Shown here piece by piece: positions 18,876-64,000 of a DNA stretch of 64,000 bases. Source of the DNA: Squalus acanthias (taxonomy: Eukaryota); assembly GCA_030390025.1 (NCBI GenBank), contig CM059431.1, positions 150,910,001-150,974,000 on the forward strand, given 5' to 3'. The notes below the pieces were generated by a model. The model saw only the letters and a list, made by a program, of their open reading frames with translations. It searched no databases and was not told the DNA's origin. Position numbers and translations under genes: made by a program. How positions within the stretch are numbered: the stretch's first letter is position 1; the number at the start of each line of letters is the position of its first letter.

Positions 18876-19270
18876 TGCCGATTTTTTCATCACAATGTAA
18901 AACCAATTTTAAATATGTAATGGATGAGAGAAGATTTCACCCGATTATTATCGGTCCCCAAGAACCTAACGCCTTGACCGGGAGTGGTGCTCCCTTCAGA
19001 AATCCCATCTCGGGCGCAAAGCTTACTTTCCGGTCATTAATTTTAAAGTGCGTATTTTCATGTACTGAGGGAGACAATTTCCCCATTGGCATCCCCGGTG
19101 CACTGTAGCGGAAAATATTTTGTTACGTGATTGTAAGAAACGTCAGTTATTGTGGAAGCTGATTTTCTCACGGGGCACCGAGTGTTCTATAAAGGGGGAG
19201 CATTTACGGATCTCAGATACACTCCAGTCAGAAACCTAAACCGGACAGAATTCACGCAATATTCTATAAA
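18876..19270 (+). promoter_or_regulatory. Proximal promoter/5' UTR of GPCR gene 2, TATAAA at 19188-19193
   Basis: Homologous to the gene 1 and gene 3 upstream regions. TATA lies 83 nt before the ATG. Confidence 0.7.
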
Positions 19271-23880: not shown

Positions 23881-26800
23881 TAAGAACATAAGAACATAAG
23901 AAATAGGAGCAGGAGTAGGCCAATTGGCCTCTCGAGCCTGCTCCGCCATTCAATAAGATCATGGCTAATCTGATCCTAACCGCCAATCTACTATCACAGA
24001 ACCATCTCCTGAACCTAACAGAATTGGACACACGAAATAGGAGCAGGATCCGGCTACACGGCCCCTGGGCCCGCTACGCTACCCACAGGGCCATGACCGA
24101 TCCGAACCTAGACTCATGTCCAAATTCCTGCCCGCTCGCCGTAACCCTTAATTCCCTTTACTTCTAGGAATCTGTCTATTACTGTTTTAAATTTATGTAA
24201 TGATGTAGCTTCTACAGCTTTTTGGGGCAGCATATTCCATGGACCTACCAACCGCTTAGTGAAGTAGTTCCTTCTCATCTCAGTTTTGAAAGAGCAGCCC
24301 CTTATTCTAAGACTATGCCCCCTAGTTCTAGTTTCACCCATCATCGGGAACATCCTCCCCGCATCCACCCGATCCAACCCCTTCACAATGTTATATGTTT
24401 CAATAAGATCGCCTCTCATTCTTCTGAACTCCAATGAGTAGAGTCCCAATCTACCCAACCTCTCCTCATATGTTCGTCTCCTCTTCCCCGGGATTGACCG
24501 AGTGAACGTTCTTTGTACTGACTCGAGAGCAAGTATGTATTTTCTTAAGTATGGACACCAAAACTGTATGCAGTATTCCAGGTGCGGTCTCACCAATACC
24601 TTGTACAACTGAAGCAATACATCCCAATTTTTATATTCTATCCCCTTAGCAATGAAAGCCAACATTCCATTTTCCTTCTTAATCACTTGCTGCACCTGCA
24701 TACTAACCTTTTGAGTTTCGTGCACCAGGACCCCCAGATCCATTTGTACTTCAGTACTTTCCAGTTTCTTGCCATTTAGATAATAACTTGCTCTACTATT
24801 TTTCCTGCCAAAGTGCATAACCTCACACTTTTCAGTATTGTATTCCATCTTCCAAATCTCTGACCACTTACTTAGCCTGTCTATGTCCCCTTGCAGATTT
24901 TTTATGTCCTCCTCACTCACTACTTTCCCTCCCATCTTAGCATCATCTGAAAACTTTGATATGTTACACTCGGTCCCCTCCTCCAAAACGTTAATAAAGA
25001 TTGTAAAGAGTTGGGGACCCAGCACTGACCCCAGCGGAACACCACTAGTTACTGATTGCCAGTCTGAGAATGAACCATCTATCCCAACTCTCTGCCTTCT
25101 GTTAGCTAGCCAATCCTCTATCCATGCCAGAATATTACCCCCAATCCCGTGATTTTTATCTTAAGCAATAATCTTTTGTGTGGCACCTTGTCAAATGCCT
25201 TTTGGAAGTCTAAATGCACCACTTCCACTGGTTCCCCTTTATCCACCCTTTCTGTTACTTCCACAAAGAACTCCAGCAAATTTGTCAAACATGACTTCCC
25301 CCTCATAAAACCATGCTGACTTTGTCCTATTAAATTATGATTATCCAAATGTCCCGTTACTGTCGCCTTAATAATGGACTCCAAAATTTTACCTACCACA
25401 GATTTTAGGCTATAGTTTCCAGCCTTCCGTCTACTGCCCTTTTTAAATAAGGGTGTTACATTAGCAGTTTTCCAGTCTGCTGGGATCTTTGCTGAGTCCA
25501 GGGAGTTTTGGAAAATTATTACCAATGCATCCACAGTCCCCACCGCCACTTGCCTCAAGACGCTAGGATGTTAGCCATCAGGTCCAGGTGATTTATCCAC
25601 CTTGAGTTCCATTATTTTACCGAGTACCACTTCCTTAGTGATTTTGATCGTGTTTAGCTCCTCCCCCCCCTATAGCCCCCTGTTTGTCCAGTGTTGGGAT
25701 ATTCTTAGTGTCCTCTACTGTAAAGATTGATACAAAATATTCATTCAGTGTATTTGCCATCTCCATATATCCCACCATTAATTTCCCGGTCGCATCCTCT
25801 AAGGGACCAACATTTGCTTTAGCCACCCTTTTTCATTTTATATAACTATAAAAACTCTTACGATCTGTTTTTATATTTTTTGCTAATTTACTTTCATAAT
25901 CTATCTTCCCTTACTTAATCTATCATTTTGTTATTTTTTGCTGTCTTTTAAATTTTCCAAATCCTCTATCCTCCCACTACATTTGGCTACCTTATAAATC
26001 CTTGTTTTTAGTTAAATACTATCCTTAATTTCTTTACTTAGCCACCGATGACTGTCTTTTCTTTTACACCCTTTTCTTCTCAGTGGAATATATATTTTTT
26101 GGAAGTTGTAAAATAACTCCTTAAATGTACACCACTGATCATGTGTCGTCTTACCCTTTAATCTATTTTCCCAATGCACTCTCCTAAATTCCGCTCGCAT
26201 ATCTTCATAGTCTCCTTTATTCAAGCTTAGCACCCTTGTTTGAGATAAAACCTTCTCACCCTCTAATTGAATATGGAATTCAACCATGTTATGGTCACTC
26301 ATTCCAAGGGTATCCTTTACTAGGACATTTTTAATTAATCCTGTCTCGTTACACAGGAGCAGATCTAAGGTTGCATGCCCAACTGATCAGTTCAGTTACA
26401 CAGTGCTCAAGAAACCGGTCCCTAACACACTCAATGAACTCATCCTCAAGGCAGCCCTGCCCAATTTGATTTGTCCAATTAATATGATAGTTAAAATCCC
26501 CATAATTATAGATGTTCCCTTATTACAAGCCTCAACTATTTCCTGATTGATACTCCGTCCAACAGAGTTGCAACTATTTGGAGGCCTATAGACTATGCCC
26601 ACTAGTGTTTTTTCCCCTTATTATTCCTTATCTCCACCCAAACTGTTTCATTATCTTGATCTTTTGACCCAATATCATTTCTCTGTATTACAGTGATTCC
26701 TTCCTTTATTAACTTGGCCACCCACCTCCCCTTCCTTCCTGCCTGTCCTTCCTGATCGTTAAATAACCTGGTATGTTTAATTCCCAGGCATTGTCACCCT

Positions 26801-27760: not shown

Positions 27761-28425
27761 TGTTGGTTAAAAGACATATATTGCCTTTTTGCATGAGTGG
27801 TAATGAATTTAGTCGTTGCTTCAGGTTCAATCCCTTTATTTCTTCAGTCAGCATGCAAAGCACGTTAGAAGCAAAGTGGATTATACAGATACGAATACAG
27901 GAATGTAGAAATGCATTTACAAGCAAAAAAATGTGCTTTTTATTTGATTTTTGTTCCCCTAGTAAAAGTGAATCTGCTTCTTCTCCCTTGATTGGATTCC
28001 TTGTGTCACCTGACTTAACATGACTCTCCCTTCAGTAACTTTCCTTTGTCACCAGACTGATTCAAGGCCTAGGTTATCCTGCAGGTAGCATTCCCTTATC
28101 TCATCTGTCCGAATTCTTTCATCTGTCTGCTTTCTGTGTGAAAAGCAGCTGCATTTTAAGAACACAGTTTCTTTCAAAAGTTTACAGCCGAAAGGCTTTC
28201 TTCTGGTAGGCTTCCAGGATCCATGTACAATGCTTTATTTCAATTAATTACTACACGCACAGTCTCTCGCAATAATGTTTCATATTCTCTATGCTAAACT
28301 AGTTTAAATTCCCACCTATTTTTTCTGCCAAGCTATTTTTTAACATCTCAGTTACCTGATGCTTTTATTGTATCTGCTCAGCTAACTGTTAGTTTCGCAT
28401 CAAGCTCTCTGCCTCTTCCTTCTCC
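27761..28425 (-). mobile_element. LTR remnant (ERV or LTR retrotransposon) followed by a primer-binding-site (PBS)-like sequence
   Basis: Minus strand has CCAAT, AATAAA about 75 nt before the terminal ...CCAACA, then TTTT-TGGCGAGTCACC (27756 downwards). Confidence 0.5.
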
Positions 28426-28429
28426 GTGT

Positions 28430-28945
28430 TTCAAGAAGGAGCGCAGCGAAGGTTTACCAGACTGATTCCTGGGATTGCAGGACTGTCGTATGAGGAGAGA
28501 TTGGGTCGACTAGGCCTGTATTCACGAGAGTTTAGAAGAATGAGAGGGGATCTCATTGAAATGTATAAAGTTCTGTCAGGGCTAGAGAGACTGGATGCAG
28601 GGAGGATGTTTCCCCTGGCTGGGGGGTCTAGAACGAGGGGTCACAGACTCAGGATACGGGGTAGAACATTTAGAACTGAGATGAGGAGAAATTTCTTCAC
28701 TCAGAGGGTGGTGAACCTATGGAATTCTCGACCACAGAAGGCTGTGGAGGCCAAGTCACTGAATATATTTACGAAGGATATAGATAGATTTCTAGACACA
28801 AAAGGCATCAAGGGGTCTGGGGAGAGGGCGGGAATATGGTATTGAGTTAGAGGATCAGCTATGATCATATTGAATGACGGAGCAGCTGGAAGGGCAGAAT
28901 GGCCTACTGCTGCTCCTATTTTTCTATGTTTCTATGTTTCTATGT
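28430..28945 (+). mobile_element. CR1 LINE 3' end
   Basis: ORF 28426-28845 is an ORF2 C-terminus. (TTTCTATG)n tail. Confidence 0.9.
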
Positions 28946-31679: not shown

Positions 31680-32250
31680 ATATTACATAGGATCACATAG
31701 GATATACAGCATAGAAACAGGCCATTCGGCCCAACCAGTCCATGTCAGCGTTTATGCTCCACTCGAGTCTCTTCCCGTCTTTCCTCATCTAACTCTATCA
31801 GCATAACCCTCTACTCCCTTCTCCCTCATATGCTTATCTAGCGTCCCCTTAAACACATCTATACTATTTCCCTCAACCACTCCCTGTGGTAGCGAGTTCC
31901 ACATTCTCACCACTCTCTGGGTAAAAAAGTTCTTTCTGATTTCCCTATTTGAATTCTTGGTGACTATCTTATATGGATAATGTCTAGTTTTGCTCTTCCC
32001 AACAAGTGGAAACACTCTCTCTGTATCTACTCTATCAAAACTTTTCATCATTTTAAAGACCTTTAATAGTTCACCCCTCAGCCCTCTCTTTTCAAGAGAA
32101 AAAAGACCCAGCCTGTTCATCCTTTTCTGATAGGTATACACTCGCATTTCTGGTATCATCCTTGTGAATCTATTTTGCACCCTCTCCTGTGCCTCTATGT
32201 CCTTTTTATAATACGGCGAGCAGAATTCTATGCAGTACTCCAAGTATTCC
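31680..32250 (-). mobile_element. CR1 LINE 3' end
   Basis: ORF 31785-32327 (LEYCIEFCSPYYKKDI..NFFTQRVVRMWNSLP). Confidence 0.9.
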
Positions 32251-32259
32251 GCAACATTA

Positions 32260-32525
32260 CAGGGTATTTGACGTTCGATATTCAAATGACCCAGTATTTC
32301 GAAGTAGAGCAGGAGAGTCCTGGTCAATATTTACCCCTCAACCGACATCATTAAAACAGATAATCTGGTCATTATGACATTTACTGTTTGTAGGTCCTTG
32401 CTCTGTGCAAATTGACTGCGGCGTTTCCCACATTACAACAGTGATTAGACATCAAAAATCGTGTACAGCGCTTTGGGGCGTCCTGATGTCGTGAAATGTG
32501 CTATATAAACGCAAGTCTATCTTTC
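32260..32525 (+). mobile_element. DeuSINE-like SINE, 3' half
   Basis: Reverse-complement similarity to 30865-31120. Ends GCTATATAAACGCAAGTCTATCTTTCT. Confidence 0.65.
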
Positions 32526-35640: not shown

Positions 35641-37255
35641 AAGATCATGGCCGATTTTCGTCCTCTACTCCACTTTCCTGCCCGATCCCCATCTCCTCTG
35701 ATTCCCTTAGTTACCAAAAATCTATCGATCTCATCCTTGATTATAATCAATGACTAAGCATCCACAGCCCTCTGGAGTACAGAATTCAAAATATTCACAA
35801 CCCACTGAGAGAAGAAATGTCTCCTAATCTCATTCCTAAGTGCTTGAAACGTTATCCTTAGCATATGACCCCTAGCTGTAGACCCTGCAGCCAGGAGAAG
35901 CAGCTTCTCAGCATCTACCCTCTCAATCTCTCAAAGAATTTTATACATTTCAATGAGATCACCTTAGATTCATCTAAACTCCACAGAATATAGGCCCATT
36001 CTACTCAATCTCTCCTCATTGGACAGCCCTCTCATCCCAGGAATCAATCTAGTGAACCTTCGTTGCCCCCTCTCTAAGGAAAGTATATCCTTCCTTAGGT
36101 AAGGTGACCATAACTGTACACAGCACTACATGTGTGTTCTCACCAAAATCCTATCTAATTGCAGCAAAACTTGCTTACTCTTATACACCAACCGTCTTGC
36201 AATAAAGGCTAACATACCATTTGTCTTCCTAATTGCTTGCTGCACCTGTGTGTTCACTCTCTGTGATTCATTTACATAAACACCCAAATCTCTCTGAATA
36301 CCAACATTTACTGTCCTCTCACCTTTAAAAAAGAATGCTTTTCGATTCTTCCTACCCAAGTGGATAATTTTCATATTTCCCTCATTATACTCCATACACC
36401 ACCTTCCAGCCCAATCATGTAACTGGTCTATGTCCCTTTGCAGGCTCTTTGTGCCCTCGTCAGAGCTTACTTTCCCACCTATCTTTCTATCGTCAGCAAA
36501 CCTGGATATATTACACTCGGTCCCCTCATTTAAGTCATTGACATAGATTTAAATAGCTGAGGCCAAGCACTGATCCTTGCGGCATTCCACTATTTACATC
36601 TTGCCATTCCAAAAATGACCCGTTTATTCTTACTCTCTGTTCAATGTCCGTTAACCAATCCTCAATCCAAGGCAATAGCGAACCTCCAATCCCATGGGCC
36701 CTAATCTTGTGTAACAGCTCTTGTTTGGTATCTTATCGAATGCCTTCTGAAAATCCAAATATACTAAATTCACTGTTTCTCCCTTATCTACTCTATCAGT
36801 TACATCCTGAAAATACTCCAATAGATTTGTCAAACACAATGTCCTTGTCATCAAACCGTGTTGACTCTGCCTAAACATTTTATGATTTTTTTTAGGTTCC
36901 CTGTTACTATTTCCCGAATAATAGATTCTAGCATTCTCCCTACTTCTGATGTTCGGCGAACTGGTTTTTAGATCCCTGTTTTCGCCGTCCCTCCTTTCTT
37001 GAACAGCGGGGTTACATTTGCTGCCTTCCAATCCACGGGGATTGTTGTAGTATGTCTGGAATTCTGGAAGGTCCAAACCATTGCATCCACTACCTCTGCA
37101 GCACCTCTAAGGAAACCCTAGTTTGTATGCCATCAGGTCCAGGGTATTTTTCGGCTTTTAGTCCCATTCATTTCTCCAGTAATTTTTATTTACTTACATT
37201 AACCACTTTAAGTTCCTCACTCTGGTTTGTCTTGCCCCTTCCACAACTATTATGA
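35641..37255 (-). mobile_element. Older CR1 LINE RT region plus 3' UTR
   Basis: ORFs 36651-37076 (SQHGL..LDFQKAFDKIP) and 36126-36395. Confidence 0.88.
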
Positions 37256-37289
37256 GAGAATATCCTGCATGATTTGTAAAAGTTAAGTA

Positions 37290-40200
37290 ATGTCTAACGA
37301 AGCTAATTGATTTTCTTTGAGGAGATAACTAACGTTGTCGTTAATCATGTTGCTATGGATGCTATTTACATGAATTACAGAAAGCATTGCCAAGGTTGCA
37401 CATAATAGACTGTTAACTAAGATGAGTTTGCATGGAATTGGAGGCAAACTTTTGGCTTGGATAGGGTATTGGTCAGGAGATCGAAGACAGAGAGTATGCT
37501 CAAATTGGCAGGATGTGACGAGTGGTGTCTACCTGGGATCGCTACGTAGCCTCAGCTTTTCAATATATTTATACATGACTTGGACGAAGGATAGAGAGCA
37601 ATATATCTAAGTTTGCTGACGATGCTAACTTAGGTCCCACAATAAATAATGCAGATGGAGGAGAAATTTGCAAGGGGTCATTGATAAATTAAGTGAGTGG
37701 GCAAAACTGTGGTAGATAGAGTATAACGTGGGAAAATGCGAAGTCATCCACTTTAGATCAAACAAAGGCAGATCAGAGTGTTTTCTAAATGGTGAGATGT
37801 TAGCAAGATAGCATCTGCAGATGATCAGATAGATTTAGTGGTCCAAATACCGAAATCACTAAAAGCTAGTGGACAGGTACAAAAAATAATTAAAAAGGCT
37901 AACGTAATGTTGGTTTTACCTCAAGAGGGCTGTAATACAAAGGGTGGTGGTTATGTTACAGCTGTAGAGAACTCCGGTAAACCCCATCTGGAGCACTGTG
38001 CGCAGTTCTGGGCACCGCACCTCAGGAAGGATATATTGGCCTTGGAGGGGGTGCAGCGCAGACTCACCAGAATGATACCAGGGCTAAAAGAATTAAGTTG
38101 CATTTAATGCAGAAGATTAAGGGTAGTTCTAAGTGAGGTGTTTAAGATGATCAACGAGTTGATAGGGTAACTAGAGAGATACTCTTCCCTCTGGTGGAGG
38201 GAGTCTAGAAGAAGGGGGTATAATCTTTAAATTAGAGCTAGGCCGTTCAGAGGTGATGTCAGGAAGCGGTTATAAGAACATAAGAACATAAGAAATAGGA
38301 GCAGGAGTAGGCCAATTGGCCCCTCGAGCCTGTTCCGCCATTCAATAAGATCATGGCTGATCTGATCCTAACCGCCAATTTACTATCACAGAACCATCTC
38401 CTGAATCTAACCGAATTGGACACACGAAATAGGAGCAGGATCAGGCTACACGGCCCCTGGGCCCGCTCCGCTACACACAGGGCCATGACCGATTCGAACC
38501 TAGACTCATGTCCAAATTCCTGCCCGCTCCCCGCAAAACTTAATTCCCTTTACTTCTAGGAAACTGTCTATTTCGGTTTTAAATTTATGCAATGATGTAG
38601 CTTCTACAGCTTTTTGGGGCAGCATATTCCATGGACCTACCACCCTCTGAGTGAAGTAGTTCCTCCTCATCTCAGTTTTGAAAGAGCAGCCCCTTATTCT
38701 AAGACTTTGCCCCCTAGTTCTAGTTTCACCCATCATCGGGAACATCCTCCCCGCATCCATCCGAACCAACCCCTTCACAATCTTATATGTTTCAATATGA
38801 TAGCCTCTCAATCTTCTGAACTCCAATGAGTAGAGTCCCAATCTACACAACCTCTCCTCATATGTCCATCAACTAAACCCGGGATTAACCGAGTGAATCT
38901 TCTTTGTAATGACTCGAGAGCAAGTATGTCTTTTATTAAGTATGGACACCAAAACTGTATGCAGTAATCCAGGTGCGTTCTCACTGATACCTTGTACAAC
39001 TGAAGCAATACCTCCCTATTATTATATTCTATCCCCCTAGCAATGAAAGCCGACATTCCATTGGCCGTCTTAATCACTTGCTGCACCTGCATACTAACCT
39101 TTTGAGTTTCGTGCACCAGGACCCCCAGATCCCGTTGTACTTCAGTACTTTCCAGTTTCTTTCCATTTAGATAATAACTTGCTCTACTATTTTTCCTGCC
39201 AAAGTGCATAACCTCACACTTTCCAGTATTGTATTCCATCTGCCAAATCTCTGCCAACTTGCTTAGCCTGTCTAAGTCCCCTTGCAGATTCTTTATGTCC
39301 TCCTCACTCAATGCTTTCCCTCCCATCTTAGTATCATCTGCAAACTTTGATATGTTACACTCGGTCCCCTCCACCAAATCGTTAATACAGATTGTAAAGA
39401 GTTGGGGACCCAGCACTGACCCCTGCGGAACAGCACTAGTTTCTGATTGCCAGTCTGAGAATGAACCATTTATCCCAACTCTCTGGTTTCTGTTAGATAG
39501 CCAATCCTCTATCCATGCCAGAATATTACCCCCAATCCCGTGATTTTTTTATTTTAATCAATAATCTTTTGAGTTGCACCTTGTCAAATGCCTTTTGGAA
39601 CTCTAAATACACCACACCACTGGTTGCCCTTTATCCACTCTGTATGTTACTTCCTCAAAGACCTCCAGCAAATTTGTCAAATATGACTTCCCCTTCGTAA
39701 AACCATGCTGACTTTGTCCTATTAAATTATGATTATCCAAATGTCCCGTTACTGTCTCCTTAATAAAGGACTCCAAAATTTTACCTACCAAAGATGTTAG
39801 GCTAACCGGTCTATAGTTTCCCGCCTTCTGTCTACTGCCCTTTTAAAATAAGGGTGTTTCATTAGCAGTTTTCCTGTCTGCCAGGATCTTTGCTGAGTCC
39901 AGGGAGTTTTGGAAGATTATCACCAATGCATCCACAATCCCTACCGCCACTTCCCTCAAGAACCTAGGATGTAAGCCATCAGGTCCAGGTGATTTATCCG
40001 CCTTGAGCCCATTATTTTACCGAGTACCACTTCCTTAGTGATTTTGATCGTGTTTAGCTCATCCCCCCCCCTATAGCCCCCTGTTTGTCCAGTGTTGGGA
40101 TATTCTTAGTGTCCTCTACTGTAAAGACTGATACAAAATATTCATTCAGTGTTTTTGCCATCTCCATATTTCCCTCCATTAATTACCCGGTCTCATCCTC

Positions 40201-42270
40201 TAAGGGAACAACATTTACTTTAGCCACCCTTTTTCTTTTTATATAACTATAAAAACTCTTACTATCTGTTTTTATATTTTTTGCTAATTTACATTCATAA
40301 TCTATCTTCCCTTTCTTAATCAATCTTTTTGTTATGTTTTGTTGTCTTTTAAAGTTTTCCCAATCCTCTATCCTCCCACTAGATTTGGCTACCTTATATG
40401 TCCTTGTTTTTAGTCGAATACTATCCTTAATTTCTTTACTTAGCCACGGATGATTTTCTTTTCTTTTACACCCTTTTCTTCTCACTGGAATTTTTTTTTT
40501 TGGAAGTTGTATAAAACATCCTTAAATGTACACCACTGATCATGTATCGTCTTACCCTTTAATCTATTTTCCCAATCTACTCCACTCAATTCCGCTCGCA
40601 TACCTTCCAAGTCTCCTTTATTCAAGCTTAGCACCCTTGTTTGAGATCCAAACTTCTCACCCTCTAATTGAATATGGAGTTCAACCATGTTATGGTCACT
40701 CATTCCAAGGGGATCCTTTATTATGACATTTTTAATTAATCCTGTCTCGTTACACAGGACCAGATCTTTGGTTGCTTGCCTTGGTCGGTTCAGTTACATA
40801 CTTCTCAAGAATCCCAACCCTAACACACTCAGTTAACTCATCCTCAAGGCAGCCCTGCCCAATTTGATTTGTCCATTTAATATGATAGTTAAAATCCCCC
40901 TTAATTATAGATGTTCCCTTATTACAAGCCTCAACTATTTCCTGATTGATACTCCGTCTAACAGAGTTCCAACTGTTCGGAGGCCTATAGACTACACCCA
41001 CTAGTGTTGTTGTGCCCTTATTATTCCTTATCTCCACCCAAACTGTTTCATTATCCTGATCTTTTCACCCAATATCATTTCTCTGTATTACAGTGATTCC
41101 TTCCTTTATTAACATAGCCACCCCACCTCCCCTTCCTTCCTGCCACTCCTTCCTGATCGTTAAATAATCTGGTATGTTTAATTCCCAGGCATTGTCACCC
41201 TGCAGCCATGTTTCTGTAATGGCCACAAGGTCATACCCATATGTAGTTATTTGTGCCATTAACTCGTCTATTTTGTTACGAATGCTACGTGCAGTCAGAT
41301 AGAGAACTTCCAAATATGTTTTGTGACACTTAGTTCCTGCTTTTGCCCTTTTTATTACTTTAAATTTTACTCAAAACCTTCTGCCCCTTCCTGACACACT
41401 CTGGATTTTAATTTCCCCACTGCTACCTAGGTCTATGACCTTCTCTGTTGTCATTTTTATTATTTGCTCTCTGGGAACCTCCCCCGCACTAGTTCGTTTA
41501 AAGACCTCTCTACAGCCCTAGTTATATGTTCCGCCAGGACTCTAGTCCCAGCACTGGCCACGTGAAGCCCGTCCCAACGGAACAGCTCCCTCCTGCCCCA
41601 GTACTTGTGCCAGTGTCCCAGGAAGCAAAACCCATTTCTCCTACACCAGTCTTTGAGCCACTCATTTAACTCTCTAATTTTATTTGTCCTAGCCAAATTC
41701 GCTCGTGGCTCAGGTAATAACCCAGAGATTATTCCCCTTGAGGTTCTGTTTTTTAATTTGACCCCTAGCTGCTCATACTTCTTTAACAGAACCGGCATCC
41801 TTGTCCTATCTACGTCGTTTGTACCAACATGGACCACGACAGATGGATCCACCCCCTCCCACTGCAAGTTTCTTTCCAGCCCAGAGGAGATCTCCTTAAC
41901 CCTGGCACCGCGCAGGCAACACAGCCTACGGGATTCTCGCTCTCGGTTGCAGAGAACTCTATCTGTCCCCCTAATAATACTGTCCCCTACCACTACAACA
42001 TTTCTATTTGCTACCCCCTCTTGAATGGCCCAAAGGTTAGTGCAAATCTGGAACTCTCTCTCCCAATAAGTAGTTGAGGGTAGTTGAGGTGAATTGACAA
42101 TTTAAAAAAAAACTGTTATTCATAGATTTTTGTTATGCAATGTTGTTAAGGTTTATGGAACGACGATGGATTCATGGAGTTAAGATACAGATCAGCCATG
42201 ATCTAATTGAATGGTGGAACAGGCTCGAGGGGATGAATGGTCTCCTCCTGTTCCTATGCTCCTATGTCTA
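37290..42270 (+). mobile_element. CR1 LINE host copy in two pieces (37290-38270 and 42033-42270), split by a younger CR1
   Basis: RT motifs (SKFADDA, HLEHCAQFWAPHLRKDI). GATGTCAGGAAGC breaks at ~38268 and continues as CAAAGGTTAGTGCAAATCTGGAACTC at ~42031, through to the tail. Confidence 0.78.
38272..42030 (-). mobile_element. CR1 LINE, relatively young copy with ORF1 SGNH-esterase domain and disrupted ORF2
   Basis: ORF 41460-41993 (VGDSII..HVGTND..DGLH), 41065-41313 (VAITETWL), 40750-41037 (YRPP, GDFN), 38808-39416 (FADDTK). Tail at 38272-38292. Confidence 0.95.
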
Positions 42271-46754: not shown

Positions 46755-48975
46755 TGGTAAAGCTTCTATAGATATGTGAAGAGAAAAAAATTGGTGAAGT
46801 CAAGCATGGGTCCCTTGCAGTCAGAATCAGGGGAATATGTGGAGTTTGCACATTCTCCCCGTGTCTGCGTGGGATTCCTCCGGGTGCTCCGGTTTCCTCC
46901 CACAGTCCAAAAATGTGCGGGTTAGGTTGATTTGGCTATGATAAATTGACCCTTAGTGTTAGGGGGGGATTAAATATGTGGGGTTATGGGGATAGGATGG
47001 GATATGTTAGGGGGAATTAAATACGTGGGGTTACGTGGATAGGGTGGGATCGGTGCAGGCTCGATGTGGGGATTCTGTGTGAGAAAGCAGGGACAGGGTA
47101 CTGGAATTGGATGATCAGCCATGATCGTATTGAATGGTGGAGCAGGCTCGACGGGCCGAATGGCCTACTCCTGCTCCTAGTTTCTATGTTTCTATGTTTC
47201 CATATAATGGGGAACAAAGAAATGGCGGACCAATTAAATACATTCTTTCGTACTGTCTTCACAAAGGAGGACATAAATACACTCCCAGAGATGTCGGGGA
47301 ACATAGGGTCTAATGAGAGGGAGGAATTGAATGAAATCAGTATTTGCAGGGAAATGGTGTTAGGGAAATTAACGGGATTGAAGGCCAATAAATCCTCAGC
47401 GCCTGATAATCCACATCCTAGGGTACTTAAGGCAGTGGCCCTAGAAATAGTAGATGAATTGCTGGTCATCTTTCAAAATTCTACAGACTGTGGAATAGTT
47501 CCCATGGATTGGAGGGTAGCTAATGTAACCCCACTATTTAAAAAAGGTAGTAGAGAAAAAAACGGGGAATTATAGATCGGTAAGCCTGACATCGGTAGTG
47601 GGCAAAATGCTAGAGTCCATTATAAAAGATGCAATAGCGGAGCACTTGGAAAACTGTGACAGGATCGGACAAAATCAATATGATCTACAAAAGGGAAATC
47701 ATGCCTGATTAATCTACTGAATTTTTTGAGGATGTAACTGGTTGAATATATAAGGAAGAACCAGTGGATGTGGTGTATTTGGACTTTCAGAAGGCTTTCG
47801 ATAAGATCCTGCAGAAGAGATTAGCGTGTAAAGTTAAAGCACATGGGATTGGGGGTAAGGTACTGATTTGAATAGAGAACTAGTTGGCAGACAGGAAGCA
47901 AAGAGTTGGAATAAACGGGTCTTTTTCCGAGTGGCAGGCAGTGACTAGTGGGGTACCGCAGGGATCGGTGCTTGGATCCCAGCTATTCACAATATATATT
48001 AATGACCTAGACGAGGGAACTAGATGTAATATCTCTAAGTTTGCTGACGACACAAAGCTGGGTGGGCGTGTGTGCTGTGAGGAAGATGCAGAGAAACTCC
48101 AGTATGATTTGGACAGTTTGAGTGATTGGGCAGATGCATGGCAGATGCAGTATAATGTGGATAAATGCGAGGTTATCCACGTTGGTGGCAAAAACGGGAA
48201 GGCAGATTATTATCTGAACGGCAATAGATTGGGAAAATGGGAAGTGCAACGAGATCTGGGAGTCCTTGTGCACCAGTCGCTGAAGGTAAGCATGCAGGTG
48301 CAGCAGGCGGTTAAGAAGGCAAATGGTATGTTGGCCTTCATAGCGAGAGGTTTCGAGTACAGGAGCAGAGATGTCTTGCTGAAGTTCTACAAGGCCTTGG
48401 TGAGACCACACTTTTAGTATTGTGTGCAGTTTTGGTCGCCTTATCTGAGGAAGGATGTTCTTGCCATGGAGGGAGTGCAGCGAAGATTTACCAGACTGAT
48501 ACCTGGGATGGCAGGAGTGACGTATGAAGAGTGATGGGTTCGATTAGGCTTATATTCGCTAGAGTTTAGAAGAATGAGAGGGGATCTCATTGAAACTTAT
48601 AAAATTCTAACAGGACTAGACAGACTAGATGCAGGAAGGATGTTCCCGATAGTCGGGGGAGTCCAGAACCAGAGGTCACAGTTTAAGGATAAGGGGTAAG
48701 CCATTATTACTGAGATGAGGAGGAATTTCTTCACCCAGAGAGTGGTGAACCTATGGAATTCTTTACCACAGAAGGCAGTTAAGGCCAATTTATTAAATAT
48801 ATTCAAGAAGGAGATAGATATATTTCTTAAGGCCAAAGGGATCAAAGGAATTGGGGAGAAAGAAGGGACAGGGTACTGAATTTGGATGATCAGCCATGAT
48901 CTCATTAAATGGCAGAGCAGGCTCGAGGGGCGGAATGGCCTACTCCTCCTCCTATCTTATATGCTTCTATGCTTC
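46755..48975 (+). mobile_element. CR1 LINE ORF2 (linker, RT) plus 3' end, carrying a SINE/LINE-tail insertion at 46838-47201
   Basis: ORFs 47066-47575 and 47884-48417 (GVPQGSVLG..FADDTKLGG). Confidence 0.92.
46838..47065 (+). mobile_element. HE1/V-SINE-like element, 5'-truncated
   Basis: V-domain-type TGTGGAGTTTGCACATTCTCCCCGTGTCTGCGTGGG...CTCCGGTTTCCTCCCACAGTCCAAA. Confidence 0.85.
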
Positions 48976-50779: not shown

Positions 50780-53700
50780 GATGGATTGGCTTACATCTTC
50801 CAAAATTGCTTTGATTCCAGAACGGTCTCAGTGATTTGGAATGTAGCAAATGTAACACCGCTATTCAAGAAAGGAGGGTGAGAGAAACCAGGGAACTACA
50901 TGACAGCTAGCCTGACATCGGTCATTGGGAAAATGCTGGAATCCATTGTTAAGGAAGTGATATCAGGGCAGTTAGAATATCATAAGATAATTGGTAGAGT
51001 CAACATGGTTTTATGAAAGGGAACTCTTGTTTGACAAATTTATTAGAGTTTTTGAGGATCATATAATCATAGAATCATTACAGTTACAGCACGGAAGGAG
51101 GCCATTTCGGCCCATCGTGGCCACGCCGGCCAACAAAGAGCTATCCAGTCTAGTCCCTCTTCCCAGCTCTTGGTCCGTAGCCCTGCAGGTTAGAGCATCC
51201 CAAGGACACATCCAAGTACTTTTTAAATGTGGTTAGGGTTCCTGCATCTAACACCCTTTCAGGCAGTGAATTCCAAACCCCCACAGTCCTCTGGCTGAAG
51301 AAATTTCCCTTAAATCCCCATTAAACCTTACACCAAATACTGTAAATCTGTGCCCCCTGGTTTTTGACCGCTCTGCTAAGGGAAATAGGTCCGTTCTATT
51401 CACTTTATCTAGGCCCCTCATAATTTTATACACCTCAGTAAGGTCTCACCTCAGCCTCCTCTCTTCCAAGGAAAACAGACCCAGCCTATGCAGTCTTTCG
51501 TCATAGCTAAGATTCTCTACTCCCGGCAACATCCTTGTAAATCTCCTCTGTACCCTCTCTAGTGCAATCACATATTTCCTGTAATGTGGTGACCAGAACT
51601 GCACGCAATACCCTAGCTGAGGCCTAACTATTGTTTTATACAGTTGAAGCATAACCCCCCTGCTCTTGTATTCTATGCCACGGCACATAAAGCTAAGCAT
51701 TCCGTATGCATTCTTAACCATATTATCTACCTTGCCTGCTAAATTCAGAGATCAGTGGACAGGCACTGCAAGTTCACTTTGTTCCTCTACACTGCTCAGT
51801 GTCCTACTATTTAATGTGTATTCACTTTCCTTGTTAGCCCTCCCCAAATGGATTACCTCACACTTCCCGGATTGAATTCCATTTGCCACTGTTCTGCCCA
51901 CCTGACCAATTTATTGATATCTTCCTACAGTCTACAGCGTCCTTCTTCAGTATCAACTACACAGCCGATTTTAGTATCATCTGCAAACTTCTTAATCATA
52001 CCCACTATACTCAAGTCAAGATCATTGATATATACCACGAAAAGCAAGGTACCTATTACTGAGCCCTGCGGAGCCCACTGGAAACAGCCTTCCAGTCACA
52101 AAAACACCCATCAACCATTACCCTCTGCTTTCTGTCTTTAAGCCAGTTTTGAATCCAACTTGACACTTTGCCCTGTATCCCATGGGCTTTTAACTTCGTG
52201 ACCAGTCTGCCATGTGGAAACTTATCAAAAGCCTTGCTAAAGTCCATATAAACTGCATCAAACACACTACCCTCATCTACCCTCCTTTTTACCTCCTCAA
52301 TAAATTCAATCAATTTTGTCAGACACGATCTTCCCTTAACAAATCCGTGCTGACTATCCTTGATTAATCCGTGTCTTCTAAATTAAAATTTATACTGTTA
52401 TTCAAATTCTTTCCAATAATGTACCCACCACCGAGGTTAGGCTGACTGGCCTGTAATTAATTGGTCTATGCTTTTCTCCCTTTTTAAACAAGGGTATCAC
52501 ATTAGCAGTCCTCCAGTCCTCCGGCACCACACCTGAAGCCAGAGAGGATTAAAAAATGATGGTCAAGGCATCTGCTATTTCCTCTTTTGCTTCGCTTAAC
52601 AGCCTGGGATACTTTCATCCGGGCCTGGGGATATATCCACTTTTAAAGCTGCTAAACCCCTTAATACCTCCTCTCTCACTATGTTTATTTCATCTAATAT
52701 TTCACACTCCTCTCCCCTGATAGAAATGTCTGCTTCGCCCCTCTCCTTTGTGAAAACAGACGCAAAGTAATCATTAAGAACCCTACCGACGTCTCCCGCC
52801 TCCACACACAGATTACCCTGTTCATTTTCGCAACAATAATGTATTTAGTTATCTTCTTACTCTTATTATATTTATACAACATCTTTGGGTTTTCCTTGAT
52901 TTTTCTTGGCAAGAACTTTTCATGCTCTCTCTTTGCTTTCCATATATCCTTTTTAATTGCACCCCTGCACTTCCTGTACTCATCTAAAGCTTCTGGAGTA
53001 TTTAGCCCTCGCTATCTGGCATAAGACACCCTTTTTTTCGTTATCCTACCCTTTATGTCCCTAGACATCCAGGGGGCTCTAGATTTGTTAGTCGCACCTT
53101 TTTTCTTTAAGGGCACATATTTTGTCTGAACCCTCCGGATCGCCTCCTTGAATGCCTCCCACTGCTCTGAAACTGATTTACCTTCAAGAAGCTGTTTCCA
53201 GTCACAATGGCTAAATCCCCTCTGAGCTTAGCAAAATTTGCTTTTCTCCAATTTAGAATTTTTATTCCTGGTCTATCCTTGTCCTTTTCCATAACTACCT
53301 TAAATCTAAAAGAATTATGGTCACTAGCACCAAAATGCTCCCCCACTGATACGCCTTCCACCTGCCCAGCTTCATTCCCTAAAACTAAGTCCAGAACCGC
53401 CCCGTCCCTTCTTGGGCTTGCAACATACTGGCTAAAAAGTTCTCCTGGATGCATTTTAAGAATTCCGCACCCTCTATAACCTTCACACTAAATTTATCCC
53501 AGTTAATATTGGTAAGTTGAAATCATCTACTATTACTGCCCTATAGTTTTTGGACTTCTCGTAAATTTGTCCACATCATCCCCCCTCACAGCTGTAATAG
53601 TGTCTTTAATCAATACCGCGAACCTCCACCCATCTTACCTCCCTCTCTATCCCGTCTGAAAATACTGTAACCAGGAATGTTGAGCTGCCATACCTGCCCC

Positions 53701-55375
53701 TCTTTTAGCCACTTCTCTGTAAAAGCTATAACATCATAGTCCCAAGTATCTGCCTGTCCCCTCAGCTCATCTGCCTTTTTCGCTATACTCCTTGCATTGA
53801 AGTATATACCATTTAGTACAGGCAACGCTCCTTGCTGACTACGATCGAGCCCTTGATTCCTCTTTCCTGCCAATTTACTTTCTAAGCTTTTGTTTTCCAA
53901 CTCCAGTTTTTCTTCCCTCCCTATTGGCTCTATACGTAGATTCCCATCCCCCTGCCAAGCTAGTTTAAACCCTCCCCAAAAGCACTCGCAAACCCTCCCG
54001 TGAGGATATTGGTCCCGTTCCCGTTGAGGTGCAACCCGTCTGGCTTGTCGAGTTCCCACCTCCCCCAGAAACGGTTCTAATTCCTCAGGAATCTAAAGCC
54101 CTCCCGCCTATACAATCCCTGCAGCCACTCATTCATCTGCGCTATCTTCCTATTTCTGTTCTCACTCGCACGTGGCACTGGTATTAAACCGGAGATTACT
54201 CACCCTGAGGTCCTGCTTTTTGACCTCTTTCCTTGCTCCCTAAACTCTGCCTGCAGGACCTCATCCCTCTTCCTACCTAATTCGTTGGTAACTTTATGGA
54301 GCAAGACCTCTGGCTGTTCACCCTCCCCCCTCAGAATGTCATGCAGCCATTCAGTGACATCGTTGACCCTGGAACCAGGGAGGCAACATACCATCCTGGA
54401 GTCACGTCTGCGGCCGCAGAAACGCCTGTCTGCTCCCCTAACTATTGATGTAACTAGTAGGGTAGATTAAGGGGAACAAGTGGATGTAGTATATTTGGAT
54501 TTCCAAAAGGCATTCGATAAGGTGCCACATAAAAGTTTATTGCACAAGACATGTTTGCATGGGTTTTGGGTAATATAGTAGCATGGAAAGAGGATTGGTT
54601 AACGGACAGAAAACAAAGAGTAGGGAAAACGGGTCTTTTTCAGGTCGGCAGGCTGTAACTAGTGGGGTAACGCAAGGTTCAGTGCTGGAGTCTCAGCTAT
54701 TTGCAATCTATGTTACTGAACAAGATGAAGGGACCGCGTGTAATGTATCCAAGTTTACTGACGATACAAAGCTAGGCGGGACAGTAAGCTGTGAGTAGAA
54801 CACAACAAGTCTGCAAAGGGATATAGATAGACTAAGTGAGTGGACAGTAAGTTGGCAGATGGAGGATAATGTAGGGAAATGTGAAGTTATTCACTTTTGT
54901 AGGAAGAATAGAAAAACATAATATTTTTTAAATGATGAGAATCTTTTAAATGTTGGTTTTCAGAGAGATTTGGGTGTTTTCATGCAAGAAACACAGAAAG
55001 CCAGCATGCAGCTACAGCAAGCAATAAGGAAGGCAAATGGCATGTTGATCTTTATTGCAAGGGGTTTGGAGTAAAGAGTAAGGAAGTCTTGCTACAATTG
55101 TACAGGTCCTTGGTGAGACCACACATGGAGTACTGTGCACAGTTTTGGTCTCCTAATCTAAGGAAGGATATACTTTCCTTGGAGGCGGTGAAACAAAAGG
55201 TTCACTAGATTGATTCCTGGGATGAGAGGGCTGTCCTATGATGATAGATTATGTAGATTGGGCGGATACTCTCTGGAATTTAGAAGAATGAGCGGTGATC
55301 GCATTGAAACATACAATATTGAGAAGGGGATTGACAGGGTAGATGTTCCCCTGACTGGAGTATCTAGAACTAGAG
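50780..55375 (+). mobile_element. CR1 LINE host copy in two pieces (50780-51059 and 54447-55375)
   Basis: GAGTTTTTGAGGAT | GATGTAACTAGTAGGGTAGAT is one continuous RT sequence (EFFEDVTSRVD). Confidence 0.82.
51060..54446 (-). mobile_element. CR1 LINE (partial ORF1 esterase, decayed ORF2, tail) nested in another CR1
   Basis: ORFs 54200-54394 (CCLPGSRV), 53610-54059 (FNARSI), 53107-53454 (SDHN), 52056-52313 and 51446-51721. GAT is duplicated at both junctions. Confidence 0.92.
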
Positions 55376-58174: not shown

Positions 58175-60004
58175 TCATATTTTGTTAACCAAGTTCCGAA
58201 TCAATGTCCAGGGAGCTTTCACTAATCTCACCAGCTCTTCCCTGAATTTGGTTTGGGTCGCTGCATAAATGCACGTGTTTGTACAGGAGCTCAAATACAT
58301 GAGCATAAATCCGCTTGCAGAGGCGATGTATGCAGCAGATGTATAATCGGGTCGTTCATAAATGACCAGGGAGTTCATTAAATAACTAACGACAGCTGTC
58401 AGCCACAACAATATAAAACTACCTGATACACTGAACAGTAAAATGATGGATTTCCTCCGGCTCGCCATCTCTGGATCGCTCTGATTCTCACTGCTGTGAC
58501 CCCGGAGTCTCCTGCGGGCTCTACTGGCCACTAAAATCCGTCTGACTGTCAAACCATTAAACAGAAATATCAAAGCAAAAGGAAGCCCTGCAGTTAAAAG
58601 AGTTTCTAACCAGACAAATGCTGTAGCTGCAGGCGAGGTGAAGAAGTCAATTTTCAAGCGGCAACCCCAGTGAATATTGTTAATGATTCGTGCAGTTTCA
58701 TATGCAAACGAATAGGGGATATTGTCCAACCAGAGCAGAACAGAGACCATTGTTATTACGGCGGCCGCAGTTCTCACTGTGCAATATTTCGTTTTAAACT
58801 TCTCACAACTTATCGCGACATAGCGGTCAAATGTGAAGGAGATGGTAAACCACACGGACATATCGAGGGCAACAGCATTCAAGTATACAAGCAACCTACA
58901 GACGGCAGTGAAGTTGAGGAATGAATGTGGAAAGTGATATGTAAAAACGCGGTACAGCAGCACATTGATGATCATGACCAGTAGATCTGCTGTTGCCATG
59001 GCCACCATGTAGACCGAGATACCTTTGGAAAGACCGCATTTGCCTCTGGAGAGAATCACGATTGTCAGTAGGTTCGCTGTGAGAAAGAGTGACAAGCGGT
59101 CAGTAACGGGCACACTCGGATAAATCTCACACCATATTGTGGGTAAATGTGCAGATGTGTCCCTGTGCAGGCGCATTTTTAATTATATAGGCTGGTTTTA
59201 ACGAAGAGGTTTTTTTTACATGAACACTCAATATACAGGGATTGAAAATCACGCGTCCTTCCCTCAGACTTCAGACAGACATCGCCAAATATAAAATGTA
59301 ATTTCACAGCAATTACTGCAAATATATGAATTCAAACGAAGCATTCAGTTGAGAGAACATCATTCAATTTAGGTCGAAACTCTGCGCTTTTTCTTTGTAC
59401 AATTGCCTTGGGGCGGGGGGTGGGGCGGTGGGGGTTGGTGGGGGCGGTGAGCTGGGAGCTGCTTGGTAACAGAGCGGGATCTGGTGGAGACGCGAATGTA
59501 CTTTGCAGCCAAGGGGAGTGGAGCAGCTCCTGAGCGGCAACTACTGCTCAAAGTATCTTTCAAAGTCCCCTGTTGGGTGGAGGTGGCTGCAGTCCGAGCA
59601 ATTATCAACGTAAATTAAACAGGGTACAAGTGTACACATGATGTGATTACTATCCACAGGAAGCAGCACATCCTGTAGTGATCTCTATACTATTGGAGGG
59701 GCCGGGGGAAGTCAGCTTCGCCCTCCCTCAGTACAGGAAGAAAGCGAGCGCCCGGCACCCACGAGCTACCGACCAGCCTCACCAGCCGCGTGGACTGGTT
59801 GGATTCCCATTGATATTCACCAACTTATCCCGATGGTTAAGTGACTCTGCAATGAGGACATTCTGAGAATCATTACATAATAATTAAAACTGAGATAGAC
59901 AACAGCCATTAGACAACAGGATTCACTGACTTACCTGGAATGCCAAAGGCTGCGAGAGCAGGATAGTAAATGATGCTGACCATTTGAATTGTTGACAGTG
60001 CCAT
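58175..60004 (-). CDS. GPR139/GPR142-like class A GPCR, gene 3, intact, 323 aa. Exon 1 60004-59935, exon 2 59076-58175
   Basis: Exon 1 MALSTIQMVSIIYYPALAAFGIP, then G/gtaagt. Acceptor ctcacag/CG AAC. 70+902 = 972 nt in frame to TGA. Seven hydrophobic segments; YY...GIPANLLT, ATADLL, FDRY, C(TM3)/WGC and NTCIY resemble GPR139 (YY..LGLPANILT, AAADIL, IDRY). Confidence 0.92.
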
Positions 60005-60400
60005 TTTTATAAAGAATATGTGACTTCTGTCCGGCACTTTGGTTAGTATCAGAGTGTACATGCGATCCATAAACAATCTCATTTTATAGCAAAGTCGGTG
60101 CCCCGGTGAGAATATTAGTCACATGACAATTGGCGTTAGTTACAGTCACTTAACCAACAAGGCAAGATTTTCCGCTTCAGTGTGCCTGGGACAACAAAGG
60201 CGACATTTTACAACTCAATTCAAATGAACGAACGGGACCTGATACTAGATGGAATGTATTGTGCACAATCACCTTGATCACCGAAGGGAACATCCCACAC
60301 GGGTACTGCGTCAGGTTACTGGTGCCTCGTAATAATTCGTGAAATCTTAAATCATCCATTAGATAGTTAAATTTAGCTTTGTACTATGATGATAAATGGA
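60005..60400 (-). promoter_or_regulatory. Proximal promoter/5' UTR of GPCR gene 3, TATAAA at 60088-60083
   Basis: Reverse complement aligns with the gene 1 and gene 2 upstream regions (GCACACTGAAGCGGAAAAT, TTCTCACCGGGGCACCG, CTATAAA). TATA lies 84 nt before the ATG. Confidence 0.7.
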
Positions 60401-63400
60401 GGTGACCCTAATCTAATTTAACTGCTGGTACCCTACTCTAATCTTACTGGTGATGATTCTACTCCAATATTACTGGTGGTGAATCAACGCAAACATTACC
60501 GGTGGTGAACCTATTCTAACATTAATGGTGGTGACCCTACTCGAACATTACTGGTGGTGACTCTACTCCAACATTACTGGTGGTGACCCTACTATAACAT
60601 TACTGGTGGTGACTCTACTCTAACATTACTGGTGGTGACTCTACTCTAACATTACTTGTGGTGACCCGACTCTAACATTGCTGGTGGTGATTCTACTCTA
60701 ACATTACTGGTGGTGACTCTACTCTAACATAACTGGTGAAGAGTCTACTCTAACATTACTGGAGGTGACCCTAATCTAACATTACTGGGGGTGAGTCTAC
60801 TCGAACATTACTGGTGGTGAGTCTACTCTAACATTACTGGGGTTGAGTCTACTCGAACATTACTGGTGGTGAGGCTACTCGAACATTACTGGGGGTGAGT
60901 CTACTCTATCATTACTGGTGGTGAGTCTACTCTAACATTACTGGGGGTGAGTCTACTCGAACATTACTGGTGGTGAGCCTACTCGAACATTACTTGCGGT
61001 CACTCTACTCTAACATTACTGGTGGTGACCCTACTCTTCCATTACTGGTGGTGAGTCGACTCTAACCTTACTGGTGTTGAGTCTACTCTAACACTACTGG
61101 TGGTGAGTCTACGCTAACATTACTGGTGGTGTGGTTATTCTAACATTACTGGTGGTGACATTACTTTAACATTACTGGTGGTGAGTCTACTCTAACATTA
61201 ATGGTGGTGACTCTACTCCAACATTACTGGTAGTCACTCTACTCTAACATTACTGATGGTGACTCTACGTTAACATTACTGGTGGTGACTGTACTCTAAC
61301 ATTACTGATGGTGACTCTACTCTGACATTACTGGTGGAGACTCCACTCTAACATTACTGTTTGTGACACTACTCTAACATTAATGGTGGTGAGTCTACTC
61401 TAACATTACTGATGGTGACTCTACTCTGACATTACTGGTGGAGACTCCACTCTAACATTACTGTTTGTGACACTACTCTAACATTAATGCTGGTGAGTCT
61501 ACTCTAACATTACTGGTGGTGAGTCTACTCTAACATTACTGGTGGTGAGTCTATTCTCACATTACTGGTGGAGACCCTACTCTAACATTACTGGTGTTGA
61601 GTCTACTCTAACATTACTGGTGGTGAGTCTAATCTGACATTACATTTGGTGAGCCTACACTAACACTAGTGGTGGTGAGTATACTCTATCATTACTGGTG
61701 TTGAGTCTACTCTAAAATTACTGGTGGTGAGAATACTCTTACATTCCTGGTGGTGAGTCTACTCTAACATTACATGTGGTGAGACTACTCTAACATTAAT
61801 GTTGGTGACTCTACTCTAAATTACTGGTGGTGAATCTACTCCTACATTACTGGTGGTGAGTCTACTCTAACATTACTGGTGGTGAGTCTACTCTAACATT
61901 ACTGGTGGTGACACTACTCTAATATTCCTGATGATGAGTCTCCTCTAACATTACTGTTGCTGAGTCTACCCTGACATTACTGCTGCTGACCCTACTCTAA
62001 CATTTTTGGTGGTGACTCTAGTCTATCATTACTGGTGGTGACGCTACTCCAACATTACTGGCGGTGATTCTACTCTAACATTAATGGTGGTGAATCTACT
62101 CTAACATTAATGTTCGTGACTCTACTCTAACATTACTGGTGATGAGTCAACTCGAACAGTACTGGTAGTGACTCTACTCTAACTTTACTGGTGTTGAGTC
62201 TACTCTAACATTACCTGTGGTGAAACTACTCTAACATTACTGGGGGTGAGTCTACACTAACATTACTGGTGGTGAGTCTACTATAATATTACTGGTGGTG
62301 CGTCTACTCCAACATTGCTGTTGGTGACACTACTCTAACATTACCAGTGGTGACCCTGCTCTATCATTACTGGTGGTGAACCTACTCGAACATTACTGAC
62401 GGTCACTCTACTCTAACATTACTGGTTTTGAGTCGACTCTAACATTACTGGTGGTGTGTCTACTCTGACATTACTGCTGCTGACCCTACTCTAACATTAC
62501 TGGTGGTGACTCTAATCTAACATTACTGGTGGTGAGTCTACACTGACATTACTGCTGCTGAACCTACTCTAACATTACTGGTTGTGAGTCGACTCTAACA
62601 TTACTGGTGGCGAGTCTACTCTAACATTACTGGTGGTGACTCTAATCTAACATTACTGGTGGTGAGTCTACACTGACATTACTGCTGCTGAACCTACTCT
62701 AACATTACTGGTTGTGAGTCGACTCTAACATTACTGGTGGTGACTCCACTCTAACATTACTGGTGATGAGTTTACACTAACATTACTGCTGGTGAGTCTA
62801 CACTAACATTACTTGTGGTGAGTCCACTCTAACATTACTGGTGATGAGTCTACTCTAACAGTACTGGTGGTGACTCTACTCTAACATTACTAGTGATGAG
62901 TCCACTCTCACATTACTGGTAGTGAGTCTACTCTATCGTTACTGGTGGTCAGTCTATTCTATCATTACTGGTGGTGACCCTACTCTAACATTACTGATGG
63001 TGACCCTGCTCTAACATTACTGGTGATGAGTCTACTCTAACATTACTGGTGGTGACCCTACTCTAACCTTACTGAGGATGAGTCTAATATAACATTACTG
63101 TTGGTGAGTCTACTCTAACATTAATGTTGGTGAGTCTACTCTAACATTACTGCTGCTGAACCTACTCTAACATTACTGGTGATGACCCTACTCTAACATT
63201 ACTGGTGGTGACTCTACGCTAACAATACTGGGGGTGAGTCTACTCTAACATTACTGGTGGGGAGTCTACTCTAACATTACTGGTGTTGTCCACTCTAACA
63301 TTACTGGTGGTGAGTCTAATCTATCATTACTGGTGTTTTGTCCACTCTAAGTTACTGGAGGTGAGTCTACTCTAACATTACTGGTTGTGACACGACTCGA

Positions 63401-64000
63401 ACATTGCTGGTGGTGAGTCTACTCTAACATTACTGGTGGTGACGCTACTCCAACATTACTGGTGGTGAATCTAATCTAACATTAATTGTCGTGACTCTAC
63501 TCTATCATTACTGGTGTTGACTTTACTCTAACATTACTGGTGGTGAGATTACTCTAACATTACTGGTGGTGACTCTATTCTCACATTAATGGGGGTGAGT
63601 CTACTCTAACATTACTGATGGTGAGTCTACTCTAACATTACTTGTGGGTGACACTACTCTAACAATAATGGTGGTGACTCTACTCCAACATTACTGGTGG
63701 TGAGTCTACTCCAACATTACTGGTGGTGACTCTACTCTAACATTACTGGTGGTGACTCGACTCTAACATTACTGGTGGTGACTCAACTCTAACATTACTG
63801 GTGATGTGTCTAATCGAACATTACTGGTGGTGACCCTGCTCTACCATTACTGGTGGTTATTCTACCCTAACATTACTGGTGGTGACACTACTATAACATT
63901 ACTGGTGGTGAGTCTACTCTAACATTACTGGTGGTGAGTCTACACTAACATTACTTGTGGTGAGTCTACTCTAACATTACTGGTGGCGAGTCTACACTAA
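60401..64000 (+). repeat. 26-bp satellite array D, directly upstream of GPCR gene 3, running off the right edge
   Basis: Tandem CTACTCTAACATTACTGGTGGTGAGT monomers. More homogeneous than arrays A and B. Confidence 0.97.

Follow-up and report, generated by a model that had tools for sequence, protein, structure and literature searches.

In a 64,000-nucleotide stretch of the Squalus acanthias genome (the window), an intact receptor gene and two pseudogenes represent a very large family of class A G-protein coupled receptors (GPCRs). The family descends from an orphan lineage that is sister to GPR139 and GPR142, and we propose, with a probability of roughly 55%, that it serves as an extensive chemosensory repertoire with which outside chemicals are detected.

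The three genes of the window each have two exons and lie within 48 kb; gene C is intact, and genes A and B are pseudogenes. In gene C, on the minus strand, exon 1 (60004-59935, 70 nt) consists of the ATG, 23 codons in all plus one base, and a GTAAGT donor follows; it encodes a very short N-terminus and the first half of TM1. A phase 1 GT-AG intron of 858 nt (59077-59934, minus) separates it from exon 2 (59076-58175, minus, 902 nt), which runs from TM1 to helix 8 and is open up to the stop. The spliced reading frame (58175-60004, minus) is open, with 323 amino acids, and its only Pfam match is 7tm_1 (E 8e-22). Genes A and B are on the plus strand. Exon 1 of gene A (11869-11938) is followed by an exon 2 (13508-14414) with an in-frame TGA at 13660-13662 and a 1-bp deletion near 14081, and exon 1 of gene B (19271-19340) by an exon 2 (20135-21055) with a 1-bp insertion in a T run near 20826. 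Compared at the DNA level with exon 2 of gene C, that of gene A is 78% and that of gene B 80% identical. These coordinates and lesions bear out the original prediction of three paralogues, one intact, one with a single lesion and one with two, and the conserved and variable peptide stretches that it quoted are present in the translations. The 23-codon exon 1 is shared by 87 of the 89 family loci at which exon 1 was located, and the AG acceptor at gene C's TM1 codon is also found in GPR139, a GPR142-like gene and two single-copy orphan receptors of the same genome. Many broken reading frames occur elsewhere in the window (5659-6072, 16311-16799, 24114-25570, 28393-28845, 31785-32330, 36126-39548, 41460-42101, 47021-48417 and 53107-54092); they resemble pieces of LINE reverse transcriptase, endonuclease and esterase-type ORF1, and we take them to be ordinary repeats.

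Degenerate motifs can be used to count the family genome-wide. With up to two mismatches allowed, the TM7, TM6 and TM3 motifs match 1,427, 1,898 and 2,932 loci, and reversed controls match none. Forty TM3 loci were fetched from the first 100 matches listed, all of them zero-mismatch, and all 40 are family members, some as fragments. The same motif recovered 59 of 60 and 72 of 80 loci that had been chosen by other means and from which it had partly been designed. Exon 2 is open for at least 285 amino acids at 70 of 120 motif-picked loci (58%, CI 49-67%), exon 1 not being required for the call, and this fraction is biased upward because exact motif matches favour young copies; the other 50 loci are broken or partial. 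From these counts we estimate about 2,900 copies, of which roughly 700-1,900 would be intact genes, the low end being obtained by dropping all small scaffolds and assuming 40% intact. Of 4,695 candidates in a genome-wide protein search, 131 were scored, every one at least 66% identical; 54 of these 131 top matches lie on small scaffolds, and some may be haplotype duplicates. Clusters of the family are found on C1, C3, C6, C7, C12, C26, C29 and C30, several of them near contig ends. Pairwise protein identity among 135 intact copies ranges from 40 to 100% with a median of 53%, and 34 of the 135 have a neighbour at 98% identity or more. A lineage-restricted expansion with birth-and-death turnover had been predicted from the window, and the genome agrees: there are about 2,900 loci rather than a few, as against one cluster per named amphibian species, and the turnover is seen in the 50 of 120 motif-picked loci that are broken or partial.

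Outside this genome, a database search returned 2,354 clusters at E <=1e-10, a total that may include non-members. The 120 clusters among the matches listed are all from sharks and rays, mostly under the name 'probable G-protein coupled receptor 139', and the closest named relatives of gene C among the matches listed are shark proteins (70-76%) and ray proteins (about 57%). Matches in the ESM Atlas are confined to clusters that carry this automatic name and to FMRFamide/Srw-like clusters of invertebrates. A Callorhinchus protein (P0137) nests inside the family on a branch supported at 91/91, not starred. The family thus occurs in sharks, rays and a chimaera, and given this nesting the expansion probably started before chimaeras diverged. 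One basal elasmobranch subfamily (P0202, P0310-P0321) has one to two clusters per named species and is kept from sharks to rays; it is a candidate for an ancestral or co-receptor role.

The automatic name notwithstanding, the family is not made up of duplicates of GPR139. Forcing it to group with GPR139 is rejected (AU p 6.8e-34, lnL 183 lower), true GPR139 (C18) and the GPR142-like gene (C24, 57% identical to GPR139) are each single in the genome, and family identity to the genome's own GPR139 is 25%; membership in GPR139/GPR142 proper, as originally supposed, must be given up. In our trees (62 and 41 rows, LG+G4 without a mixture model, on reduced sets with 21 and 14 own-genome members), the family and the basal elasmobranch subfamily are together sister to an amphibian/sturgeon gene (support 100/99). 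That group is joined (99/97) by the types represented by two single-copy orphan GPCRs of this genome, L114 (G000:C17:37.41 Mb, 62% identical to a coelacanth protein) and L115 (G000:C9:120.53 Mb), in a clade that also includes single-copy coelacanth, teleost, bichir, sturgeon and amphibian orphans. Amphioxus proteins come next, united with the orphan clade at 99/89 in one tree and 93/80 in the other, and GPR139 and GPR142 fall outside. Judged by tree placement and the common TM1 intron position, the family belongs to a GPR139-related superclade with vertebrate orphans and amphioxus relatives.

Each named amphibian species has a single cluster of the orthologue (20 clusters), sturgeon has the gene as well, and the 25 matches to it in a word-limited search include no teleost or amniote. 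No other gene of the Squalus genome comes nearer to the sturgeon gene than the family members do (28-37%), so the family is the multiplied co-orthologue of this apparently single-copy orphan. In Xenopus tropicalis the gene (XP_031757816.1) appears to be single, whereas its sister group here has thousands of loci. The orphan group to which the family belongs is probably the 'GPR210' group of PMC6504862; that paper places these orphans of coelacanth, gar and teleosts near GPR139/142 and reports them as single genes, and the word 'shark' does not occur in it. In the present genome, by comparison, two other subtypes have separate single genes (C17 and C9). L114 and L115, together with the expanded type and a type known only from coelacanth (P0259), resemble four subtypes that descend from a single amphioxus-type ancestor, possibly a whole-genome-duplication quartet.

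For a view of the protein, we use an AlphaFold2 model of P0002, a full-length homologue 71% identical to gene C (pLDDT 84, pTM 0.82). The model has seven helices with TM1 starting from residue 5, so that the N-terminus is about 4 residues, as well as an ECL2 hairpin and helix 8. Its nearest folds are NTSR1, CCK1R and GPR139, with similar scores; what the comparison of the predicted structure shows is a peptide-receptor-like fold, no more. By sequence, human GPR139 (7VUG, 9M42) is the best PDB match, at only E 7e-9, and it is third by fold; W6.48 and the TM1 acceptor position are common to both. The class A core is well kept in the 135 intact copies (D2.50 in 135, D3.49 in 134, R3.50 in 134, C3.25 in 122, W6.48 in 131, N7.49 in 135, Y7.53 in 135), and R is found at 6.30 in all. 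P6.50 and P7.50 are present in only 7 and 6 copies, and since both are mostly replaced, canonical activation is not assured.

The original prediction had carried an amino-acid ligand over from GPR139 and GPR142, and this part is not supported. The residues of GPR139 that bind Trp and Phe are taken here from PMC7318219, with numbering that is sequence-based and good to +/-1 in TM4 and TM7. Of that site, W6.48 is present in 131 of the 135 copies, F3.33 in 22 and H5.43 in 5; position 7.38 is G in 132 (N is found at 7.39 in 5), and E3.32 and R6.51 are absent from the seven commonest residues at their positions. Thus E3.32, H5.43, R6.51 and N7.38 of GPR139 are mostly missing, and homology gives no ground for regarding the family as aromatic amino acid receptors.

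Selection was analysed in two subfamilies, with 66 and 34 copies after removal of 3 and 5 near-duplicates; 27 other intact copies fall outside the set. Codon models were fitted with our own GY94 likelihood, which reproduces the IQ-TREE M0 value, and for M8 and M8a the branch lengths were scaled rather than re-fitted and sites were assigned by empirical-Bayes posteriors. M8 is preferred over M8a in both subfamilies (2dL 45.1 for n=66, 14.6 for n=34), with a positive class of omega 1.66 on 15% of sites in the larger set and 1.48 on 13% in the smaller. Sites with P(omega>1)>0.9 are mainly extracellular: 19 of 135 extracellular positions versus 3 of 155 intracellular ones (p 9e-5) in the first subfamily, and 11 of 135 versus 2 of 155 (p 0.008) in the second. 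The 34 canonical pocket positions, numbered by sequence anchors, exceed the remaining 55 positions of the outer TM regions (p 0.010 and 0.019), and of the 40 and 36 fast sites in the two subfamilies 15 coincide (p 7e-6).

Recombination alone does not produce this signal, which persists with segment-specific trees (p 7e-9 and 0.004). In the local subfamily, such trees fit much better than the whole-gene tree; the disagreement suggests gene conversion. Synonymous rates in its exon 2 are higher in extracellular than in intracellular segments (p 0.0006), a pattern that suggests homogenisation of the signalling core by gene conversion. Relaxed constraint accounts for part of the signal, because pooled pocket omega (1.00 and 0.68) is not above 1 and few sites pass when synonymous rates are free: in a FUBAR-like grid, one subfamily retains 8 sites, 6 of them extracellular (Fisher p 0.15), and the other a single site, which lies in helix 8. 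Purifying selection acts on the signalling core, with omega about 0.3. Inner TM omega is 0.32 and 0.30 overall and equally low on terminal branches (0.31 and 0.32), so that the intact copies are still maintained by selection; the grid places 100 and 171 of 290 sites under negative selection. Diversified ligand pockets had been predicted, and the pocket and extracellular half do diversify in M8, in the site-location tests and with segment trees; far from being uniform, dN/dS is 0.7-1.0 in the pocket versus about 0.3 in the core. The near-invariance that had been ascribed to the intracellular segments is not complete, as positions 308 and 314 in helix 8 are among the fastest-changing sites. Residue 308 of gene C passes in both subfamilies and both tests, and residue 314, also intracellular, is fast as well.

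Upstream of the coding sequence, the family has a TATA box about 80 bp before the ATG. The promoter block of gene C is at 60083-60157 on the minus strand, with the TATA at 60088-60083 and a conserved upstream block at 60157-60136; those of genes A and B are on the plus strand at 11714-11791 (TATA at 11786) and 19117-19193 (TATA at 19188). In 71 of 83 promoters (shuffled 1.2) a block containing a forkhead-like core precedes the TATA by about 70 bp, though paralogues are not independent, and this core is altered in gene C's own subclade. With the same dependence among paralogues, a single subfamily accounts for all 37 of the 87 promoters that have an O/E-like site, and a homeodomain-like site lies near the TATA in 39 of 83 (shuffled 7.2) but over 330 bp in 46 of 87 versus 29. 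Odorant-receptor promoters typically carry O/E plus homeodomain sites. The promoter core recurs at much the same position in subfamilies on C3, C7, C12, C26 and C29, where the DNA further upstream is not alignable and the proteins are only about 50% identical.

Beyond the promoters of the window genes there are arrays of a 26-bp satellite, at 60433-64000 (gene C), 9451-11462 (gene A) and 18003-18850 (gene B), which form part of the duplicated cassette of the local subfamily. At loci L001-L104 the satellite is found in fixed orientation upstream of all 56 tested local-subfamily promoters and of none of 19 promoters in other subfamilies; weak matches occur at 3 of 40 further loci. It starts about 300-540 bp upstream, and 1,138 bp in one case, and is a candidate for a role in duplication or gene choice. 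As a driver of the whole expansion it can be set aside, with 0 of 19 promoters in the other, likewise expanded subfamilies. More arrays, oriented as upstream of gene C, occupy window positions 1-8125 with no adjacent family exon inside the window; their source may be a minus-strand copy that lies immediately ahead of the window start.

The prediction that the family is distinct from OR, TAAR, V1R and V2R agrees with the PDB matches, with 7tm_1 as the only Pfam match and with the GPR139-related tree placement; the trees were made without those families. The 43 PDB matches include no OR, V1R, V2R or T2R, and one TAAR at E 3e-4, far below GPR139. D3.32 is not among the seven commonest residues at its position in the 135 intact copies. 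The OR, TAAR, V1R/ORA, V2R and T2R families (PMC10869828, PMC10116579) resemble the present one in clustering, birth-and-death, compact 7TM structure, variable pocket and shared promoter. The present family differs in having arisen separately in a GPR139-related peptide-receptor clade and in being absent from published chemoreceptor inventories. Of the features of chemosensory repertoires, it has a large clustered multigene set with many pseudogenes, and a conserved signalling core with a diversifying pocket (the latter weaker with free synonymous rates). Rodent vomeronasal FPRs and the MRGPRs are non-olfactory class A lineages that were co-opted or expanded to sense outside molecules, with under ten to about fifty genes. 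Co-option would be similar here, in unrelated lineages and with far more genes. A co-opted, expanded class A receptor repertoire is thus an already known kind of system, and it is the family that is new.

As we picture it, every receptor of the repertoire would present one common G-protein interface (DR in 134 of 135 copies, Y7.53 in 135 of 135), with an orthosteric pocket and extracellular loops that vary, so that copies would bind different water-borne ligands. Peptides or peptide-sized molecules would be the likeliest ligands, given the peptide-receptor-like fold and ancestry. The common proximal promoter would confine the family to a single cell type, in which each cell would probably express one gene or a few. 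New copies would come from tandem duplication of the promoter and two-exon cassette, and gene conversion is likely to act within the local subfamily. The nose is our tentative choice of site, held at somewhat less than even odds, and there the expressing cells would be Go/TRPC2 microvillous neurons.

Two considerations favour a chemosensory role. Among vertebrate GPCRs, only chemosensory families are known to number hundreds to thousands of genes. The other is that known receptors label few cells in the catshark nose: according to PMC10116579, catshark olfactory neurons are nearly all Go/TRPC2-positive, and about 6 cells per mm are labelled with a v2r1 probe. The average count of known olfactory receptor genes in cartilaginous fishes is 43.8 (PMC10869828). 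PMC11979771 has no GPCR in the top 50 genes of a catshark brain and olfactory library, which counts weakly against a chemosensory role because single receptor genes are rare transcripts. Among four sequencing runs, two of unrecorded kind contain about 1,000 related contigs each, and two that we guess to be RNA give 14 and 11 short partial matches, some intronic, with no splice joint; these matches weigh neither for nor against expression.

Diversifying pockets are also expected of immune sensors, and the main alternative, which we consider rather unlikely, is that the receptors are innate immune or barrier sensors, FPR- or MRGPR-like and far larger in number, with which leukocytes, mast-like cells or gill, gut or skin epithelium would detect microbial or parasite peptides. 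The selection pattern (M8, extracellular sites) fits this reading too, and so does the peptide-receptor-like fold. The forkhead-like promoter core suits sensory placodes and endodermal or epithelial cells equally well. Against it, known vertebrate immune GPCR families number only in the tens of genes, and the main text of the bamboo shark immune-genome paper is without mention of GPR or GPCR.

Mostly neutral amplification of the cassette by unequal crossing-over (genomic drift), with few functional copies, is a much less probable account. It would explain the broken or partial loci (50 of 120), the 34 of 135 intact copies with a neighbour at 98% or more, the satellite flanking 56 of 56 tested local-subfamily promoters and the 54 of 131 top matches on small scaffolds, possibly haplotype duplicates. 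It is opposed by an inner TM omega of 0.3 even on terminal branches, by the 100 and 171 of 290 sites under negative selection, by subfamilies common to rays and distant sharks, and by the lack of the satellite at 19 of 19 promoters of other subfamilies, which also expanded. Equally improbable is a set of receptors for conspecific or reproductive signals outside sensory organs (e.g. in sperm, oviduct or endocrine cells), as an endogenous ligand system has no need of about a thousand pockets, even though enrichment in testis, spleen or rectal gland is seen for a number of catshark or and v2r genes (PMC11979771) and the wider clade is related to MIP/sex-peptide receptors (PMC12208981) and FMRFamide receptors.

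The family sequences are already public as automatic gene models. Literature searches and shark genome and transcriptome papers gave no description of the expansion, most subscription journals being outside this coverage, and the term GPR139 was not found in the supplements of PMC13188829 or in the part of those of PMC8455134 that was searched; we think it fairly improbable that the expansion has been described somewhere. PMC8455134 describes GPCRs as relatively scarce in cartilaginous fishes, and a Greenland shark preprint suggests non-traditional olfactory mechanisms and does not name the family.

About 44 olfactory receptor genes and a sparse GPCR complement sit oddly with the large olfactory organs of cartilaginous fishes. 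Roughly a thousand intact, diversifying GPCRs, hidden by one automatic name, would rank among the largest vertebrate receptor families. If the family is chemosensory, the repertoire would exceed the known smell receptors of sharks, taken together, many times over. It may be, at somewhat less than even odds, that sharks, rays and chimaeras smell mainly via a fifth, unrecognised olfactory family of hundreds to more than 1,000 genes that arose from one GPR139-related orphan; as the main olfactory family, it would overturn the view of cartilaginous fishes as having the smallest vertebrate olfactory repertoire. If it is immune, it would be an innate receptor repertoire of a size unprecedented for GPCRs. 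Either way, an orphan gene that is single in amphibians has been turned into a repertoire, and the family makes the question of shark odour discrimination directly testable.
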